Source: a virus
Taxonomy: Duplodnaviria > Heunggongvirae > Uroviricota > Caudoviricetes
Length of the DNA stretch: 9,209 nt
IMG/VR virus record: IMGVR_UViG_2923307698_000010
Strand: one strand, 5' to 3'
Position numbers and translations under genes: made by a program. Below are positions 1 through 5,244 of the stretch, piece by piece. Under the pieces are notes generated by a model. The model was not told where the DNA came from, did not search any database, and saw only the letters and a program-made list of their open reading frames with translations. Numbering within the stretch: position 1 is the first letter of the stretch; the number at the start of each line of letters is the position of its first letter.

Positions 1-327
1 ATGACTAAAAATACTCGTTTTTCCCCTGAAGTCCGTCAACGGGCAGCCCGTATGGTTCTGGAAAGTCAGGGCGAATATGACTCACAATGGGCGACAATTT
101 GTTCCATTGCTCCAAAGATTGGCTGTACGCCGGAGACTCTGCGTGTCTGGGTTCGCCAGCATGAGCGGGATACCGGGGGCGGTGATGGAGGGCTCACCAC
201 CGCTGAACGTCAGCGTCTGAAAGAGCTGGAGCGTGAAAATCGTGAACTGCGCCGCAGTAACGATATCCTTCGCCAGGCTTCCGCTTATTTTGCGAAGGCG
301 GAGTTCGACCGCCTCTGGAAAAAATAA
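1..327 (+). CDS. IS3-family transposase OrfA (HTH DNA-binding subunit), IS629-like
   Basis: 108-aa ORF with an N-terminal HTH and a C-terminal leucine-zipper-like segment ([27 protein letters not shown]); ends in the A-rich frameshift window. Confidence 0.93.
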
Positions 328-1214
328 TGCCGCTGCTGGATAAGCTGCGTGAGCAGTACGGGGTCGGACCGCTATGCAGCGAACTGCATATTGCCCCGTC
401 AACGTATTACCACTGTCAGCAACAGCGACATCATCCGGATAAACGCAGTGCCCGTGCGCAGCGCGATGACTGGCTGAAGAAAGAGATACAGCGCGTATAC
501 GATGAAAATCACAAGGTATACGGTGTGCGTAAAGTCTGGCGTCAGTTGTTACGGGAAGGTATCAGAGTGGCCAGATGCACTGTGGCACGTCTCATGGCGG
601 TTATGGGACTTGCCGGTGTTCTCCGGGGTAAAAAGGTCCGCACTACCGTCAGCCGGAAAGCCGTTGCCGCATGCGACCGCGTAAACCGTCAGTTCGTGGC
701 AGAACGTCCAGACCAGTTGTGGGTGGCTGATTTTACCTGGGTAAGCACATGGCAGGGCTTCGTTTATGTGGCGTTCATCATTGATGTGTTCGCCGGATAC
801 ATCGTGGGATGGCAGGTCTCATCATCCATGGAAACAACATTCGTGCTGGATGCACTGGAGCAGGCGTTGTGGGCCCGTCGGCCGTCCGGCACAATCCATC
901 ACAGTGATAAAGGTTCTCAGTATGTATCGCTGGCCTACACGCAGCGGCTTAAGGAAGCCGGATTACTGGCATCAACAGGGAGTACTGGCGACTCGTATGA
1001 CAACGCGATGGCGGAGAGCATCAATGGTCTTTACAAAGCGGAGGTAATACACCGTAAGAGCTGGAAAAACCGTGCAGAAGTGGAACTGGCCACACTCACG
1101 TGGGTGGACTGGTATAACAATCGACGATTGCTGGAAAGGCTGGGCCATACTCCCCCGGCAGAAGCAGAAAAAGCTTATTATGCTTCCATCGGAAACGATG
1201 ATCTGGCAGCCTGA
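327..1214 (+). CDS. IS3-family transposase OrfB (DDE catalytic domain), IS629-like
   Basis: 295-aa ORF in the -1 frame relative to orfA, starting in a TAATG overlap. Shows the DDE/rve integrase-core signature (…WVADFTW…HSDKGSQY…DNAMAES…). Confidence 0.93.
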   Translation: MPLLDKLREQYGVGPLCSELHIAPSTYYHCQQQRHHPDKRSARAQRDDWLKKEIQRVYDENHKVYGVRKVWRQLLREGIRVARCTVARLMAVMGLAGVLRGKKVRTTVSRKAVAACDRVNRQFVAERPDQLWVADFTWVSTWQGFVYVAFIIDVFAGYIVGWQVSSSMETTFVLDALEQALWARRPSGTIHHSDKGSQYVSLAYTQRLKEAGLLASTGSTGDSYDNAMAESINGLYKAEVIHRKSWKNRAEVELATLTWVDWYNNRRLLERLGHTPPAEAEKAYYASIGNDDLAA

Positions 1215-2133
1215 GTTCACAGATAAAACACTCTCCAGGAAACCCGGGGCGGTTCAGGTCTTCGCGTTTTTCGGTGTACGTGCTGACGGACGGCGATAAG
1301 CGCAGGGAAAGCTCATCCCATTTTTCCCGCAGCTTCGACGGGCTGAGCACGTTACGGCACCAGAACGGATCGCGACTGACGCGGCTGTACATCTCGCAGA
1401 TTTGTTTATGAGTACGACCATCCTGCACACACATCAGGCGAATTTCGTTTGCCCAGGCTGTCCAGTTCGGTTCTTTGGGACGAACCACCTCGCCGTCACA
1501 TTCGGCGGCATGCTCGTACAGGGCGATGATTTTTTTCCAGAGCCACTGTGCGCAGGTCAAATCATCCTGCGTCCCCCACTGGCGCTTTTTAGGGCTGAAT
1601 ACAACCGCATCAGGATGGCGAGTTAAAAAATCCTGTTCAGCCGTCTGCGTGTCCGGTTGCGAAGAGTCCGGACGAGAAGGTTTTTTATCTGACGGATCAT
1701 GTTTTGATTTTACTGACGGATCCCCGCCAGATTCTGACGGGTGAAAACCCGCTTTTTTGCCAGATTTCGACGCATCAAATTTTGACGGGTCAGATTTTGA
1801 TGCGTCAGATTTTGACGGGTCAGAATCTGACAGTTGAGAAAATGCCGCTGCCTGAAGCTTCGCAACGTTAAGCTGATAAACATTCGACGCATTGCGGTTA
1901 CCCTGGCGACGCGCCTTACGCGTTAACCAGCCTTCTGCTTCCAGCCGTGCGATAGCCGTTCTGACGGTACTCATCCCCGCGCCAATCTGGCGGGCAATGG
2001 TTTCAATCGATGGCCAGCACACACCTTCGTCATTACTGAAATCAGCCAGGCGGGCCATAATTGCCACGCTGGATAATTTCATGCCTGACGCTGCGCAACC
2101 ATCCCATACATAGCCGGTTAATTTAGTGCTCAT
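1096..2133 (-). CDS. Lambdoid replication initiation protein (O-like, N-terminal HTH); 3' end fused into IS629
   Basis: ATG at 2133-2131 with a GAGG ribosome-binding site upstream. N-terminal HTH (…SIETIARQIGAGMSTVRTAIARLEAEGWL…) and an acidic/Ser-Lys linker encoded by the iterons. The ORF crosses the IS boundary at 1257/1256, so the last ~53 codons (1256-1096) are IS-derived and not native. Confidence 0.8.
   Translation of the reverse strand: MSTKLTGYVWDGCAASGMKLSSVAIMARLADFSNDEGVCWPSIETIARQIGAGMSTVRTAIARLEAEGWLTRKARRQGNRNASNVYQLNVAKLQAAAFSQLSDSDPSKSDASKSDPSKFDASKSGKKAGFHPSESGGDPSVKSKHDPSDKKPSRPDSSQPDTQTAEQDFLTRHPDAVVFSPKKRQWGTQDDLTCAQWLWKKIIALYEHAAECDGEVVRPKEPNWTAWANEIRLMCVQDGRTHKQICEMYSRVSRDPFWCRNVLSPSKLREKWDELSLRLSPSVSTYTEKREDLNRPGFPGECFICELRLPDHRFRWKHNKLFLLLPGEYGPAFPAIVDCYTSPPT
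1217..1256. repeat. IS629-like right terminal inverted repeat
   Basis: Sequence GTTCACAGATAAAACACTCTCCAGGAAACCCGGGGCGGTTCA lies immediately after the orfB stop; its reverse complement begins TGAACCGCCCCGGG, the remembered IS629 terminus. Exact boundary may be off by 1-3 bp. Confidence 0.7.
1687..1833. repeat. Iteron array (putative prophage replication origin) inside the replication gene
   Basis: Five contiguous ~15-bp tandem units at 1761-1833 (CAGATTTCGACGCAT / CAAATTTTGACGGGT / CAGATTTTGATGCGT / CAGATTTTGACGGGT / CAGAATCTGACAG), plus three dispersed CTGACGG(A/G)T copies at 1687-1742. Mirrors lambda ori lying within gene O. Confidence 0.6.
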
Positions 2134-2142
2134 GACCGACCT

Positions 2143-2481
2143 CTATTTCCCTGAATTTACGACGAAACTGTTCGAGCGGACTGAAGCACTCATGCTCATA
2201 GCCTTCGCGGAGGTAGATAACCCGTTGTGTTTCCGGTTCCCAACGAATGACTCTGACGGGCACTCCGTAGTGATCTTTGAACCAGCGGTTAACTTGTCGC
2301 AAAGGACTGTCTCCTTCTGCCGGTTGAAATCCCCCACAGCCCACTCTGCAAAGCTGTGGGTTACAATTTCCCTGTCACCTGGTACATTCACTGCATAGCA
2401 ATATTCCACCTTCGCTTTTCCACCCGGTACAGGAAGCGCAATCAGTTGCGAGCGACGGTAGTGTGTTGTTAAACTGTTCAT
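2143..2481 (-). CDS. Hypothetical early-right protein; 3' third probably out of frame (see frameshift finding)
   Basis: ATG at 2481-2479 overlaps the stop of the upstream CII-like gene (ATGA coupling) and has a GGAGA ribosome-binding site. After ~codon 50 the amino-acid and codon usage deteriorate, while the -1 frame (ORF 2123-2344) looks coding and ends 11 nt inside the rep start. Confidence 0.4.
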
Positions 2482-3047
2482 GCGTTAGTTTCTCCACAAC
2501 CAGAAGCAATCGACGCCACGACGCCCGGAGCTGCACACTCGCGGGCGTCATTACTTTCTGAAATGCAAAAGATTTTGTAGACCAGTGCTGCATGCTCCTG
2601 CAGCTTCGAAATTGAGAGATACAGCTCGTCGTTAATTGCTGTCTTCTCATGCGGTTCCACTACACCGTCTTCGATTGCTGAACGAATCTGTTTTGAATAA
2701 CTGCCGATCTGTTCAATGACTTCCAGCAGACGCTGGTTAATATCGGCGTTGTCCACATCCTCGACGTCAGGAAGCGACACAAAGACGCCATTTGCAGACT
2801 GCGCCACAGCATCAGCAATGAAGTGAGTGCCACCAGCACGCTGTAAAACCATTGCCCATCCCAGCGGGAAAATCTGATCGCCATCTGCACGAAGGCGGTT
2901 GAATAAAGCGTTTTCTGTTACATCGAGCCAGTCAGCCGCTTCAGCGTAACCACCCGGCAACGCCGCGATAGTTTTTCTGACAGCTTTCACGTACCACTCA
3001 GGCTGTTTTTCTATTTTCCAGTGATGCTTACCCACGATTAGCCTCAT
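2478..3047 (-). CDS. CII-like lysogeny regulator (YdaT / phage CII CP76-type), HTH plus coiled-coil
   Basis: 189-aa ORF directly downstream of the cro-like gene. N-terminal HTH-like segment ([22 protein letters not shown]) and a helical C-terminal half. An alternative GTG start at 3035 has a better GAGG ribosome-binding site than the ATG at 3047. Family assignment is from memory. Confidence 0.65.
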
Positions 3048-3078
3048 CGTTCTGTGGTTAAAAATTGAAAGTGTTCTG

Positions 3079-3279
3079 CTAATCTTTCGGATAGATATCC
3101 GGTCTTAAGTCAGATTTCGTAATTGCACCTGACGTGCATTGCTCAAGTTTTTTAGCCAGCACAAAACTGGCTTTTTTATAGCCATTGAAAACCAGCCGTA
3201 AGTAGCCAGGAGTTGAGCCAACTTTTCCGGCCAACTCGCCCTGCTGTTCTTTGGTTAAAGAGTCCCAATACGCTTTCAT
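3079..3279 (-). CDS. Cro-like small HTH regulator (YdaS/Cro family)
   Basis: 66-aa ORF from ATG at 3279-3277 with a GGAGG ribosome-binding site ~8 nt upstream. Divergent from the cI-like gene with operators in between. The longer six-frame ORF to 3582 is rejected because it runs through the operator region and into cI. Confidence 0.7.
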   Translation of the reverse strand: MKAYWDSLTKEQQGELAGKVGSTPGYLRLVFNGYKKASFVLAKKLEQCTSGAITKSDLRPDIYPKD

Positions 3280-3369
3280 ACAATATGTACCTCCGGTGTA
3301 CATATTACATGATTGAAATGAACCTTCAAGATACTTGTACCTTAACGGTACAAGGGTTTTAATTTCGTT
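3280..3369. promoter_or_regulatory. Divergent operator/promoter region (oR-like) between cro-like and cI-like genes
   Basis: Two palindromes with a TGTAC core: ATATGTAC-N7-GTACATAT (3283-3305) and CTTGTACC-ttaac-GGTACAAG (3334-3354). Candidate minus-strand promoter TTGAAG(3329-3324)-16-TAATAT(3307-3302) for cro; candidate plus-strand TTGTAC(3335-3340)-17-TTTAAT(3358-3363) for cI. Confidence 0.55.
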
Positions 3370-4044
3370 ATGAAAACAATCCATGACATCCGGCGGTCTA
3401 ACGCCAGAAAACTGAGAGATGGTGTTGGAGGGAATTCTTCCTTTGCCACTATGATTGATCGCGAGCCAACCCAGACCAGCAGGTTTATGGGAGATGGTGC
3501 TACTAAAAATATCGGTGACAGCATGGCACGACACATCGAAAAATGTTTCGACCTGCCTGTCGGATGGCTCGATCAAGAACACCAGACAACGAACATCACA
3601 AAAAAACCTGATGTTTCAATCACTAATAAACAAATCACATTAGTCCCTGTCATATCATGGGTACAGGCCGGAGCATGGAAAGAAGTTGGATATTCTGAGG
3701 TTGATTTGAGCACAGCAGAAACGTATCCCTGCCCTGTACCCTGTGGGGAAATGACTTATATCTTGCGGGTGATAGGTGATTCAATGATTGATGAGTACCG
3801 CCCGGGAGACATGATTTTTGTCGATCCTGAAGTACCTGCCTGCCACGGTGACGACGTTATTGCATTGATGCACGATACAGGTGAAACCACCTTCAAAAGG
3901 TTGATAGAAGATGGGACACAGCGTTATCTCAAAGCGTTAAACCCAAACTGGCCTGAGCCTTACATTAAGATCAACGGTAATTGCTCTATAATTGGAACTG
4001 TGATTTTCTCAGGAAAACCAAGAAGATACAAAATCAAAGCCTAA
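3370..4044 (+). CDS. CI-type prophage repressor with C-terminal LexA-like S24 autopeptidase domain
   Basis: 224 aa. N-terminal HTH region, an Ala-Gly candidate cleavage site (VQAGAW), a Ser nucleophile in the GDSM motif and a downstream Lys (FKRLIEDG), as in LexA/lambda CI. Confidence 0.88.
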   Translation: MKTIHDIRRSNARKLRDGVGGNSSFATMIDREPTQTSRFMGDGATKNIGDSMARHIEKCFDLPVGWLDQEHQTTNITKKPDVSITNKQITLVPVISWVQAGAWKEVGYSEVDLSTAETYPCPVPCGEMTYILRVIGDSMIDEYRPGDMIFVDPEVPACHGDDVIALMHDTGETTFKRLIEDGTQRYLKALNPNWPEPYIKINGNCSIIGTVIFSGKPRRYKIKA

Positions 4045-4056
4045 TCAATGTTTATG

Positions 4057-4079
4057 AACCTGCTTCGGCAGGTTTTTTT
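4057..4079 (+). terminator. Rho-independent terminator after the cI-like gene
   Basis: AACCTGC-ttcg-GCAGGTT hairpin followed by T7 (4073-4079), 13 nt after the cI stop. Confidence 0.65.
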
Positions 4080-4083
4080 ATAC

Positions 4084-4117
4084 TTGACAATGTACCTATG
4101 AGATACATAATGTACCC
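4084..4117 (+). promoter_or_regulatory. pL-like sigma70 promoter with operator repeats (oL-like)
   Basis: TTGACA (4084-4089), 16-bp spacer, CATAAT (4106-4111). Overlapped by direct repeats AATGTACC (4089-4096 and 4109-4116) and the inverted repeat ATGTA-N9-TACAT (4090-4108), the same TGTAC core as the oR palindromes. Confidence 0.55.
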
Positions 4118-4196
4118 AAGAGAAACAACAAACAGGCAGGACGCCCACGAAGTAGCCGCCTGGGGCATATGAAGTCCAGGATGATTCGTTAGCAAC

Positions 4197-4218
4197 AAAA
4201 AAGCGCCCTACAGGACGC
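4197..4218 (-). terminator. Rho-independent terminator of the convergent minus-strand gene
   Basis: On the minus strand: GCGTCC-tgta-GGGCGC hairpin followed by U6 (plus-strand A-run 4197-4202), ~40 nt after the stop at 4259. Confidence 0.5.
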
Positions 4219-4221
4219 TTA

Positions 4222-4233
4222 GCTCTTTAACAA
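4222..4233 (+). promoter_or_regulatory. boxA-like element (GCTCTTTAACAA) in the pL-proximal transcript
   Basis: 12-nt identity to the remembered rrn boxA core (GCTCTTTAACAA), ~110 nt downstream of the pL-like promoter. No convincing boxB hairpin follows. Confidence 0.3.
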
Positions 4234-4250
4234 TCTGGATATCCACAACA
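4232..4250. repeat. Left copy of 19-bp inverted repeat (AATCTGGATATCCaCAACA) flanking the minus-strand gene
   Basis: Matches the reverse complement of 4793-4811 at 18 of 19 positions; contains the perfect 10-bp palindrome TGGATATCCA. Confidence 0.6.
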
Positions 4251-4258
4251 GTAGTAAT

Positions 4259-4750
4259 CTACAGATTGCCGTTAAGTTTTCTGGACAACTCCTCAATGGA
4301 TGGAGGCGATACGTAATCCGGATTTTTATTCATCAGAAACTTATTTTCACAGTGGAGGCACCTGCTTTTATGAAAAAGCTCATCTTCGCTAACCGGGAAT
4401 GGTTGAAGTATCGATACTATCTTTTGTCCAAAACATTTTGGGCAAAGATGCATGGTTATGCTGCCACCGTTCACGATTACCTCCTTCGAGTATACAAAAG
4501 TACCCGACTCAAGTTGGTTAAGGATATAGCCTTCCGTCTGAGCCTCAAAGTTTTCGAATTCTGCAATTTTAGCTTTGAGAGAAGCATTTATTTCTTGATA
4601 AGAGCCCACCAGTTCAACGAGAGACACGCATTCGCGCTGAATAGACGCAAGCTTTGAGTTCAGCTCACCAATAGCCGCATTTACTTCAGCTTGAGTTTTT
4701 GCCTCGTTCATTAGTTTTGCAATCTGGGCTGTTTCACGAATAGCCGTCAT
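4259..4750 (-). CDS. Hypothetical protein: N-terminal coiled-coil plus C-terminal CxxC…CxxC zinc ribbon; moron-like gene between cI/pL and the early-left operon
   Basis: Start taken at ATG 4750-4748 (alternative GTG at 4774 with an AAGAG ribosome-binding site). Residues upstream to 5038 are Arg-rich, low-complexity and cross the inverted repeat and GC-rich leader, so are judged non-coding. Own terminator at 4197-4218. AT-rich relative to flanks by eye. C-terminal motif CPKC…(20 aa)…CLHC. Confidence 0.6.
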   Translation of the reverse strand: MTAIRETAQIAKLMNEAKTQAEVNAAIGELNSKLASIQRECVSLVELVGSYQEINASLKAKIAEFENFEAQTEGYILNQLESGTFVYSKEVIVNGGSITMHLCPKCFGQKIVSILQPFPVSEDELFHKSRCLHCENKFLMNKNPDYVSPPSIEELSRKLNGNL

Positions 4751-4792
4751 TGCTGCCGTTAATTCAGCGATCACATTGAATACTCTTATTGT

Positions 4793-4811
4793 TGTTGGGG
4801 ATATCCAGATT
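4793..4811. repeat. Right copy of 19-bp inverted repeat (TGTTGgGGATATCCAGATT)
   Basis: Reverse complement of 4232-4250 with one mismatch. Embedded in a 13-bp direct repeat TTGTTGTTGGGGA (4789-4801 and 4822-4834). Confidence 0.6.
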
Positions 4812-5061
4812 AACCGAATCCTTGTTGTTGGGGAATAACCAGGTCCACCTCGCCTGATGTGGCTAAAAGCAGGCACATAACAGCTAAGTATTTTCAACCA
4901 GAGAGAATCCTTAGCGTTGTGGTGAATGCGGCTCAGCGCACGCGGGTTAAGGTTGAGGCTGACAGTCGACCTTCTGTGGATACCCACCCGCCTGGTGTGC
5001 AACCTTCGCCAGGCACCGGGAGGCACCCGGCACCACAAGTTTATGCTGTGTGTAGTCCTGG

Positions 5062-5107
5062 CGGTACCAGTTTGTACCCTTGCTTCCGGCTGGTACCGTC
5101 CTTTTTT
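5062..5107 (+). terminator. Intrinsic terminator in the leader upstream of yfdP
   Basis: 9-bp stem CGGTACCAG (5062-5070) / CTGGTACCG (5090-5098) with a 19-nt loop, followed by T6 (5102-5107). Confidence 0.55.
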
Positions 5108-5244
5108 GCAAAACAGAGAAGAGCATCACCGGACGACGGGCTCATAACCCAATCCATCCGGGCGGCTGCCACCGCAGGTGTTCTTCTCTGTTTTGTGGAG
5201 AAACCAACCGACCTTGCAGGGTCGATATGATGAGGAGCAGCAAA

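Follow-up and report, generated by a model that had tools for sequence, protein, structure and literature searches.

The 9,209-nt stretch analysed here (the window) begins inside an insertion sequence (IS) that runs into the 3' end of a λ O-like replication initiator gene, rep, and raises the question of what the insertion has done to the initiator and to the prophage that carries it. Window positions 1-1256 belong to an IS3-family element of the IS629/IS1203 group that is 1,310 bp long, and they make up its right-hand 1,256 bp, with the following features.

1..1256, plus strand: IS3-family insertion sequence, IS629/IS1203 group, assigned from its orfA/orfB domains and identical copies elsewhere; the left 54 bp, with the left inverted repeat among them, fall outside the window
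1..327, plus strand: IS orfA, 108 aa, HTH_Tnp_1 (PF01527, E 3.7e-12)
327..1214, plus strand: IS orfB, 295 aa, HTH_21 (PF13276) and rve (PF00665) DDE transposase core, from Pfam domains
1213..1256, plus strand: IS right terminal inverted repeat, ending …GGTTCA; its reverse complement, TGAACCGCCCCGGGTTTCCTGGAGA…, equals the left repeat of an identical full copy

As in the IS629/IS1203 elements of STEC lambdoid prophages, two overlapping ORFs, an orfA with a helix-turn-helix and an orfB with a DDE (rve) transposase domain, are combined with a programmed -1 frameshift and TG…CA ends. Relative to orfA, orfB is read in the -1 frame, the overlap falls at the A-rich stretch …GGAAAAAATAATG…, and in a 100%-identical copy the annotation reads 'programmed frameshift' and includes an AL1L pseudoknot. 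The final 45 nt before 1256 repeat, in inverted form, the left end of L196, a full copy with 100% identity. L196 spans 1,310 bp, has matching terminal repeats TGAACCGCCCCGGG… and is bordered by a 3-bp duplication, AAC; the right TG…CA repeat is in the window and the left one in L196. The element is 90-99% identical to thousands of E. coli IS629/IS1203 copies and 95-99% identical to the best copy in 4,122 E. coli records. Under the ISfinder rule, an isoform has at least 95% nucleotide identity to its reference, here IS629. Unlike the usual IS629/IS1203 copies this variant is rare (31 records at a match of at least 99%, mostly plasmids), and it shares 94.7% identity with the copy annotated as IS1203 in strain UTME-1. 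An exact look-up of OrfB retrieved ten other insertion sites, 6/10 of them in the early regions of lambdoid prophages, and the site studied here is likewise in a prophage early region.

Homologues of the locus that are not interrupted occur in 1,569 of 5,426 complete E. coli genomes, and their alignment starts only at window position 1257. One such empty-site genome, STEC435 (NZ_CP129348.1), agrees with window 1257-9209 at 7,952/7,953 bases. The base before 1257 is a G in this genome, and in the window it is the A that ends the IS, which places the boundary between the IS terminus (…GGTTCA) and rep precisely at 1256/1257. The IS interrupts codon 293 of 313 and runs in the opposite orientation to rep.

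1258..2133, minus strand: native portion (codons 1-292 of 313) of the O-like initiator gene; its product matches Rep of STEC435 and of PhiR29_1 exactly through residue 292
1096..1257, minus strand: hybrid codon 293 (one native base, C, plus two IS bases, TG), 52 IS-antisense codons and TGA; read-through tail LNRPGFPGECF…SPPT
1257..1259, no strand: predicted right-hand copy of a 3-bp target-site duplication, GGT, whose left-hand copy would lie beyond the window edge

The minus-strand rep ORF in the ORF listing (2133 to 1096) encodes 345 aa, made up of 292 native codons (2133..1258), the hybrid codon and the IS-antisense codons up to the TGA. The sequence-only reading of this locus, that a bounded IS629-type element sits in the 3' end of rep, that the rep frame continues 53 codons into it and that the native C-terminus is lost, is borne out by the exact terminus, the matching inverted repeats of the full copy and the comparison with STEC435. 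The intact Rep of the empty-site STEC genome is 313 aa long, and therefore only 21 residues, 293-313 (PYFKASYDNVDYSQIPAGFRG), are missing from the interrupted allele; this is the count of lost codons that was to be had from intact homologues. That reading had also allowed that Rep would be essentially intact if its native stop lay within a few bases of the junction. The stop is 63 nt beyond the junction, which is neither a few bases nor far off.

We rejected the idea that the fusion ORF is something special. The IS-antisense tail is found on more than 1,000 unrelated ORFs, and in 118 of the best 120 of >1,000 database hits it was joined to ORFs unrelated to rep. Judged from these hits, the 53-residue extension is a generic by-product of antisense read-through of the IS, and the 345-aa 'fusion protein' is better annotated as a disrupted rep gene.

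How the element came to this position bears on the fate of the genes beyond it. The empty site reads …GAAGTACG·GGT·CTTCGCG…, and the GGT duplication is predicted because this site carries GGT and because the identical IS copy duplicates 3 bp. A related IS in the same rep gene of UTME-1 is an independent simple insertion, with the target duplication CCAG and both gene halves present. From this analogue and from the exact terminus we infer a simple insertion in the window as well, which would predict the left junction …TCGTAACTGGCTTTGAAGTACGGGT joined to TGAACCGCCCCGGGAATCC… with the duplication GGT, and hence …GAAGTACGGGT, followed by the left end of the IS and then by the final 65 nt of rep and by yfdN. 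Among the collections searched, the insertion site is found only in this window: the junction query had no match in the 5,426 complete E. coli genomes, the exact junction pattern had none in species-representative genomes, viral contigs and metagenomes, an exact look-up of the fusion protein returned no match, and a protein search with its C-terminal 100 residues returned no other copy of the fusion. The predicted left junction likewise had no match in the searched collections.

The absence of both junctions from every collection searched would also fit an IS that borders a more extensive IS-mediated deletion or inversion, with Q and the lysis, head and tail genes mostly missing or displaced. 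The window ends inside the IS, so that its left side is out of view; several copies of this IS variant in lambdoid prophage regions could recombine; and the prophage already has a second lesion (intD W235*, described below). We consider such a rearrangement unlikely. The right junction falls exactly at the IS terminus beside an unaltered target, as transposition gives, the related IS in UTME-1 left a duplication and both halves of the gene, and no positive sign of a deletion was seen. The same exact break bears on a possible misassembly in which an IS copy was joined to the wrong flank. IS copies are a classic source of misassembly and the junction is unique to this window, but the break coincides with the final base of the IS inverted repeat and does not fall inside it, which fits transposition and not the collapse of a repeat; we regard this explanation as having next to no chance of being correct.

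Along its entire length Rep matches PHROG 391, 'replication initiation O-like' (E 7e-134), and its residues 70-277 align with residues 78-270 of λ O (BLASTP E 3e-26). For residues 166-277, tblastn against λ O gives 39.3% identity over 112 aa (E 9e-18), and the helical C-terminal domains are homologous (Rep 183-277, O 187-270). The overall plan is that of λ O: an N-terminal DNA-binding domain, a disordered linker, a C-terminal domain and a tail of ~30 residues. Unlike λ O, which has a Phage_rep_O domain (PF04492), Rep has an N-terminal domain that Pfam assigns to HTH_36 (PF13730) and related winged-helix families; the winged-helix fold class is the same and the sequence family different. An NCBIfam search of Rep returned no useful family.

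1828..2133, minus strand: N-terminal winged-helix DNA-binding domain, residues 1-102 (HTH_36, PF13730; AlphaFold2 pLDDT 70-90)
1300..1650, minus strand: λ O-type helical C-terminal domain, residues 162-278, intact (λ O homology; AlphaFold2 pLDDT 83-95)
1258..1299, minus strand: what remains of the unstructured C-terminal tail (residues 279-292) after the loss of residues 293-313 with the conserved …DYSQIPAGFRG peptide
1687..1835, no strand: candidate internal origin, untouched by the IS; its function is suggested by the repeats

Within the candidate origin, about five palindromic repeats (GTCAGAWTCTGAC-like) with 15-bp spacing lie at 1761-1835 and related copies at 1690-1742. The repeat families comprise a direct repeat, D1 (5 copies, 15-nt spacing), and the inverted pairs I3, I5 and I7. 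These repeats occupy the stretch of rep that codes for the linker, which is also where oriλ is found in O. Both folded domains of Rep and the candidate internal origin are untouched by the insertion. The loss of the C-terminus is real but small, covering 21/313 residues of a tail that the AlphaFold2 model predicts to be unstructured beyond the last helix and outside both folded domains.

The size and position of the loss could mean that the insertion is silent for replication, the tail being dispensable or the extension tolerated, with transcriptional polarity as its sole effect. The junction lies in a low-confidence, unstructured region, the insertion spares the folded domains and the candidate origin, and the tail's linker part varies greatly in both sequence and length. 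Furthermore, λ O tolerates a 76-aa C-terminal tag (PMC6022878). This explanation has some probability, but a low one, given what lies at the end of the tail. The final residues of the lost segment form a peptide, DY..ΦP.GFRG, that is strongly conserved. Outside the domains it is among the best-conserved parts of Rep, with P308 and G310 each conserved at 90% or more, and it is kept in homologues that are only 56-70% identical. It is also found on initiators whose central and C-terminal domains are unrelated. In λ, an O allele encoding 294/299 aa is null, so that the loss of five terminal residues abolishes function (PMC6022878). The tails end differently in the two proteins, …DYSQIPAGFRG in Rep and …TDWIYGVDL in λ O.

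A further argument against a silent insertion is the correspondence between tail type and whether λ P is present. Scoring λ P-family genes within ±3.5 kb of the initiator in species-representative genomes, we found one near 8/8 initiators with W-rich tails, 0/51 with GFR tails and 0/19 with WxxIW tails (Fisher p ~3.5e-9, from counts that include shared ancestry and are uncorrected for phylogeny). A specific tie between the GFRG tail and YfdN was considered and rejected, since GFR-tailed initiators also precede Dam, ParB-like and other genes.

The sequence-only reading had further proposed that the IS separates a downstream helicase-loader gene from its promoter. This does not hold. No helicase loader is found downstream of rep in any of the intact relatives examined, where a YfdN/PerC-like gene comes next, nor is one annotated in the complete genome of phage PhiR29_1. 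In every intact relative rep is followed by YfdN/PerC-like, Dam, LexA-like and RusA genes and eventually by Q. Unlike λ, which has the λ P-family loader gene immediately after O, these relatives have an O homologue as the sole replication gene and neither helicase nor loader. They therefore fall into the 'O-only' type of module, a recognised but unexplained class of lambdoid replication module (PMC12315714). The class comprises phage LLS and the mEp460 group, and its type of module occurs in 34 phages, none of which has been studied experimentally (PMC12315714). As in mEp460, YfdN-like, Dam, LexA-like and RusA genes lie downstream, and the mEp460 replication protein has 82% identity to Rep across the last 33 residues. 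The window differs from the other 'O-only' modules in that its initiator is interrupted; the genes downstream of rep lie beyond its left edge, and its assignment to the class follows the intact relatives.

The conservation of the GFRG-type peptide and its distribution suggest that it is most likely a docking site for the replication machinery in initiators that act without a phage-encoded λ P loader. More tentatively, DY..ΦP.GFR(G/S/T) might recruit the host helicase machinery in 'O-only' lambdoid initiators, as the counterpart of the W-rich λ O tail that is paired with P. If so, the IS allele would be a natural deletion of exactly the helicase-recruiting peptide, and the peptide would be a direct handle on a mode of replication called not yet understood in PMC12315714. 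This side result is the more useful one, for the lost piece is a short, conserved, modular C-terminal peptide whose presence tracks the absence of λ P across many enterobacterial prophages, and it therefore points to a testable element in 'O-only' replication.

For Rep itself, inactivation, and with it the disabling of autonomous replication that had been expected from the sequence, is likely, because the conserved terminal peptide is lost and because λ O lacking its last 5 residues is null. Residual activity is possible, as Rep retains all residues predicted to fold and λ O accepts C-terminal additions.

The intact relatives place the locus. Phage PhiR29_1 (PV340556.1) is complete and 99.5% identical to window 1257-9209. 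Its Rep is 100% identical to the intact native Rep, so that by sequence a working phage uses exactly this protein. PhiR29_1 and the STEC435 argU prophage share the int-to-rep gene order of the window and differ from it in having the intact Rep and no IS at the site. The window is best explained as part of a prophage that occupies the argU/DLP12 site in a STEC-type E. coli chromosome. We rejected a small DLP12-like remnant, since the closest relatives carry full sets of head and tail genes. Searches that started from the cII-like protein and from the truncated integrase retrieved only prophages with an intact rep.

8748..8750, plus strand: in-frame TAG in intD (8046-9209), W235*, from G to A at 8749

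This change in intD is the sole base difference between window 1257-9209 and STEC435, where intD is annotated as a full-length integrase, and W235* reads as a second lesion in the IS-carrying prophage. The W235* allele is widespread. The STEC435 prophage has lesions of its own, a frameshifted terminase gene and an IS3 in tail gene T.

Our preferred explanation, which we hold to be probable, is that transposition brought an IS629/IS1203-group element into the 3' end of rep in a λ-like prophage and that the initiator and the prophage are being inactivated stepwise. The 1,310-bp element has exchanged the last 21 residues of Rep for the 53-residue read-through of its own antisense strand. The truncated Rep should still bind the origin and yet fail to start replication, because the lost tail carries the conserved, probable docking peptide. 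Together with the nonsense codon in intD, the insertion would leave a prophage that is probably unable to replicate or excise alone. IS629-type hits on prophage genes are a routine route of decay in STEC, and the event here is ordinary prophage decay.

An initiator that binds the origin and recruits no helicase could also be dominant-negative, blocking related incoming phages, so that the allele would be under selection. The intact DNA-binding domain and candidate iterons fit this idea, as does the second independent IS insertion in the same gene, and plasmid-borne fragments of the λ replication region are reported to exclude rep-λ phages (PMC3349717). Such a role is nevertheless very improbable: cI would repress rep in the lysogen, the exact allele was in no other genome or metagenome searched and shows no sign of spread or selection, and frameshifted or truncated versions of rep are common in databases, as neutral decay predicts.

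Under stepwise inactivation, we would also infer polarity on the downstream genes. The IS would cut off YfdN/PerC-like, Dam, LexA-like, RusA, KilA-N, DUF968 and Q from pR, and a 1.3-kb element that is transcribed convergently should lower pR read-through into the early genes, including that for the late-gene antiterminator Q. A scan for promoters and terminators gave weak consensus matches only. One of these weak matches, a terminator-like hairpin, lies just inside the IS end (minus strand, 1247 to 1235).

The minus-strand open reading frame running from 2133 to 1096 encodes 345 aa. Uninterrupted homologues of this replication initiator gene (rep) are present in 1,569 of 5,426 complete E. coli genomes, with alignments that start only at window position 1257, and in several STEC genomes identity over window 1257-9209 is essentially 100%. 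In E. coli STEC435 (NZ_CP129348.1), which differs from the window at one base in 7,953, the empty site in the argU prophage reads ...GAAGTACG·GGT·CTTCGCG..., and this site together with the alignments from 1257 onward places the boundary exactly at 1256/1257. Of the fused frame, 292 codons and the first base of the hybrid codon 293 (C|TG) are native; the IS antisense strand supplies the rest of that codon and the 52 further codons that lead to a TGA stop. A sequence-only reading had described a Rep-IS fusion with this junction, continuing 53 codons into the IS, and the ORF and empty-site comparison bore it out in every measurable detail. Intact Rep is 313 aa with the C-terminus ...EKRED-PYFKASYDNVDYSQIPAGFRG; the codon loss that the reading left to be measured against intact homologues is therefore 21 residues (293-313).

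The IS occupies window 1-1256 and carries two genes:
1-327, plus strand, orfA (HTH_Tnp_1)
327-1214, plus strand, orfB (HTH_21 and rve DDE core), overlapping orfA

Overlapping genes arranged in this way are typical of IS3-family elements. The IS-like sequence is a bounded element, as had been supposed: it terminates ...GGTTCA at exactly 1256, and a full-length, 100%-identical copy from another E. coli locus measures 1,310 bp, has terminal inverted repeats that match (TGAACCGCCCCGGG...) and is flanked by a target duplication of 3 bp. Because the window starts at the orfA ATG, 54 bp of the left end lie outside it. The predicted target duplication is GGT. Neither the exact junction nor the predicted left junction, queried with a sequence derived from the empty site, was found in complete E. 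coli genomes, species-representative genomes, viral contigs, metagenomes, or protein and gene indexes. An IS-mediated deletion or inversion beyond the IS, on the side that falls off the window, is an alternative to simple insertion that we consider rather unlikely. The variant is rare as an exact copy (31 records at ≥99%, mostly plasmids); the majority of E. coli IS629/IS1203 copies are 90-99% identical to it, making IS629-like a fair name. Six of ten retrieved copies of the exact variant lie in lambdoid-prophage early regions (L197-L201 and L203), among them one (L199, CP169402.1) between yfdP and cI in the same prophage family as the window, with rep intact.

The fusion ORF itself is nothing special. 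We searched the protein database with its last 100 residues and found more than 1,000 proteins matching the IS-derived half, none with the Rep junction. In 118 of the 120 best matches (P0121-P0240 retrieved), a ...(L/V/M)NRPGFPGECF...SPPT tail follows wholly unrelated upstream sequence, including fimbrial usher, Dam, antirepressor and integrase fragments. At the right end of the IS (1096-1256) the antisense strand is open for 52 codons and yields such chimeric database proteins wherever the IS inserts in the right frame. They are a recurring annotation artefact, and some are misleadingly named, e.g. FimD or BfpM-like.

Over its full length, intact Rep hits PHROG 391 (replication initiation O-like) at E 7e-134. 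Its residues 70-277 align with lambda O 78-270 (BLASTP E 3e-26), the strongest stretch being 183-277. AlphaFold2 modelling, with 30 homologues as input, gave the following layout:
residues 1-102, N-terminal winged-helix domain
residues 103-160, disordered linker
residues 162-278, confident helical domain (pLDDT 83-95)
residues 279-313, unstructured tail

The N-terminal domain is HTH_36 and not Pfam's Phage_rep_O, so Rep is O-like in architecture and C-terminal domain, not throughout. Rep has an exact counterpart (100% identity) in the complete, isolated phage PhiR29_1 (PV340556.1), and identity to that phage over all of the window outside the IS is 99.5%; thus the intact gene serves a working phage. 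Where rep encodes the linker, about five palindromic repeats (GTCAGAWTCTGAC-like) recur every 15 bp (1761-1835); related copies occur at 1690-1742, and A/T-rich stretches flank the array at about 1621-1690. The repeats are placed similarly to oriλ inside gene O, and by this analogy 1687-1835 is a candidate phage origin.

The junction falls in the flexible tail beyond the last helix of the model, and folding of the truncated Rep should therefore be unaffected. In the tail, a variable linker leads to the terminal motif (V)DY·x·x·(I/L/V)P·x·GFR(G/S/T), a peptide which is kept in homologues of only 56-70% identity and also occurs on initiators that share just the N-terminal domain with Rep. The 272-aa replication protein of phage mEp460 (L025, 2278-3096) shares only its last 33 residues with Rep (82% identical), is otherwise unrelated, and has the same block of YfdN, Dam, LexA-like and RusA genes after it. 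This puts a mosaic joint, made by recombination, within the 3' end of rep, such that the tail travels with the downstream module. The IS insertion is another case of a well-known kind of event; the most notable by-product of examining it is this conserved terminal peptide of loader-less O-like initiators, which the insertion cuts off.

O-like and related initiators have at least three C-terminal tail types: ...DY..ΦP.GFRG, a lambda-like W-rich type (...TDWIYG... or ...HWNSPEGWxxxL) and ...W..IW.... Four targeted look-ups and a survey of 79 species-representative loci, scored for a lambda P-family gene within ±3.5 kb, gave:
W-rich (lambda-like) tail, 8/8
GFR tail, 0/51
WxxIW tail, 0/19

Tail type and P neighbour co-vary strictly (Fisher's p ~3.5e-9, uncorrected for phylogeny); one apparent exception was a regex misclassification. 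We found no description of these tail types or their tie to lambda P in the literature searched. The genes following GFR-tailed initiators vary (YfdN-like, Dam and other methyltransferases, ParB-like and, in one case, a protein with a Walker-A-type motif that is DnaC-like by eye), which argues against a single phage partner for the peptide and makes contact with a host factor more likely. In a Serratia MAG (L104) and Enterobacteriaceae bacterium G50 (L103), a downstream gene with a Walker-A-type motif is DnaC-like by eye. One initiator of this pair has an internal IPEGF and ends ...GGTDDDFI, which resembles the acidic tip of SSB.

P binding has been assigned, at the domain level, to the C-terminal region of lambda O (summarised in PMC6022878). 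In the same paper an allele encoding 294 of 299 residues, labelled differently in its text and table, is null, and O tolerates a 76-residue tag appended to its intact C-terminus. Taken with the tail conservation and tail/P co-variation, this precedent makes loss of function the most likely, and a fairly probable, outcome for the truncated Rep.

The same reading had proposed that the IS parts a helicase-loader gene from its promoter, a point that does not apply here, since no loader lies downstream in intact relatives. Every intact relative examined has the order cI, cro, cII-like (YmfL), YmfM/DUF4222, Rep, YfdN (PerC-like), Dam, LexA-like, RusA, KilA-N, DUF968, Q, and helicase, loader and primase are all absent from the annotation of the complete PhiR29_1 genome. 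The module is of the O-only type, found in 34 of 314 enterobacterial lambdoid phages, whose replication "is not yet understood" (PMC12315714). It is the remainder of the early-right operon, Q included, that the IS parts from pR. On the minus strand at 1235-1247, 10 nt inside the IS end and in the rep-sense direction, a short GC hairpin precedes a T-rich run, a weak match to a terminator-like consensus, which could contribute to polarity.

The prophage occupies the DLP12 site, at tRNA-Arg (argU) beside fimZ/sfm. Its DLP12-type integrase gene, intD (8046-9209), contains an in-frame TAG at 8748-8750 (W235*, G->A at 8749), the only base differing from STEC435. In the gene collection, 63 blocks index the 234-aa truncated product, indicating a widespread allele, which is found alongside intact as well as different prophage contents. 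In the STEC435 prophage, the terminase is frameshifted and tail gene T carries an IS3. In E. coli UTME-1 (NZ_CP168979.1; L002, 2846-4157), an independent second IS of the same group (94.7% identical) interrupts the same gene, rep, at a point about 100 nt deeper inside, with a CCAG duplication and both gene halves present, and frameshifted and truncated rep versions are common in databases. Together these lesions fit the IS insertion being part of ordinary, piecemeal prophage decay. Between cI and yfdP, window 4259-5230 has long overlapping ORFs on both strands; its counterpart in STEC435 is annotated as one hypothetical protein and a frameshifted hypothetical gene.
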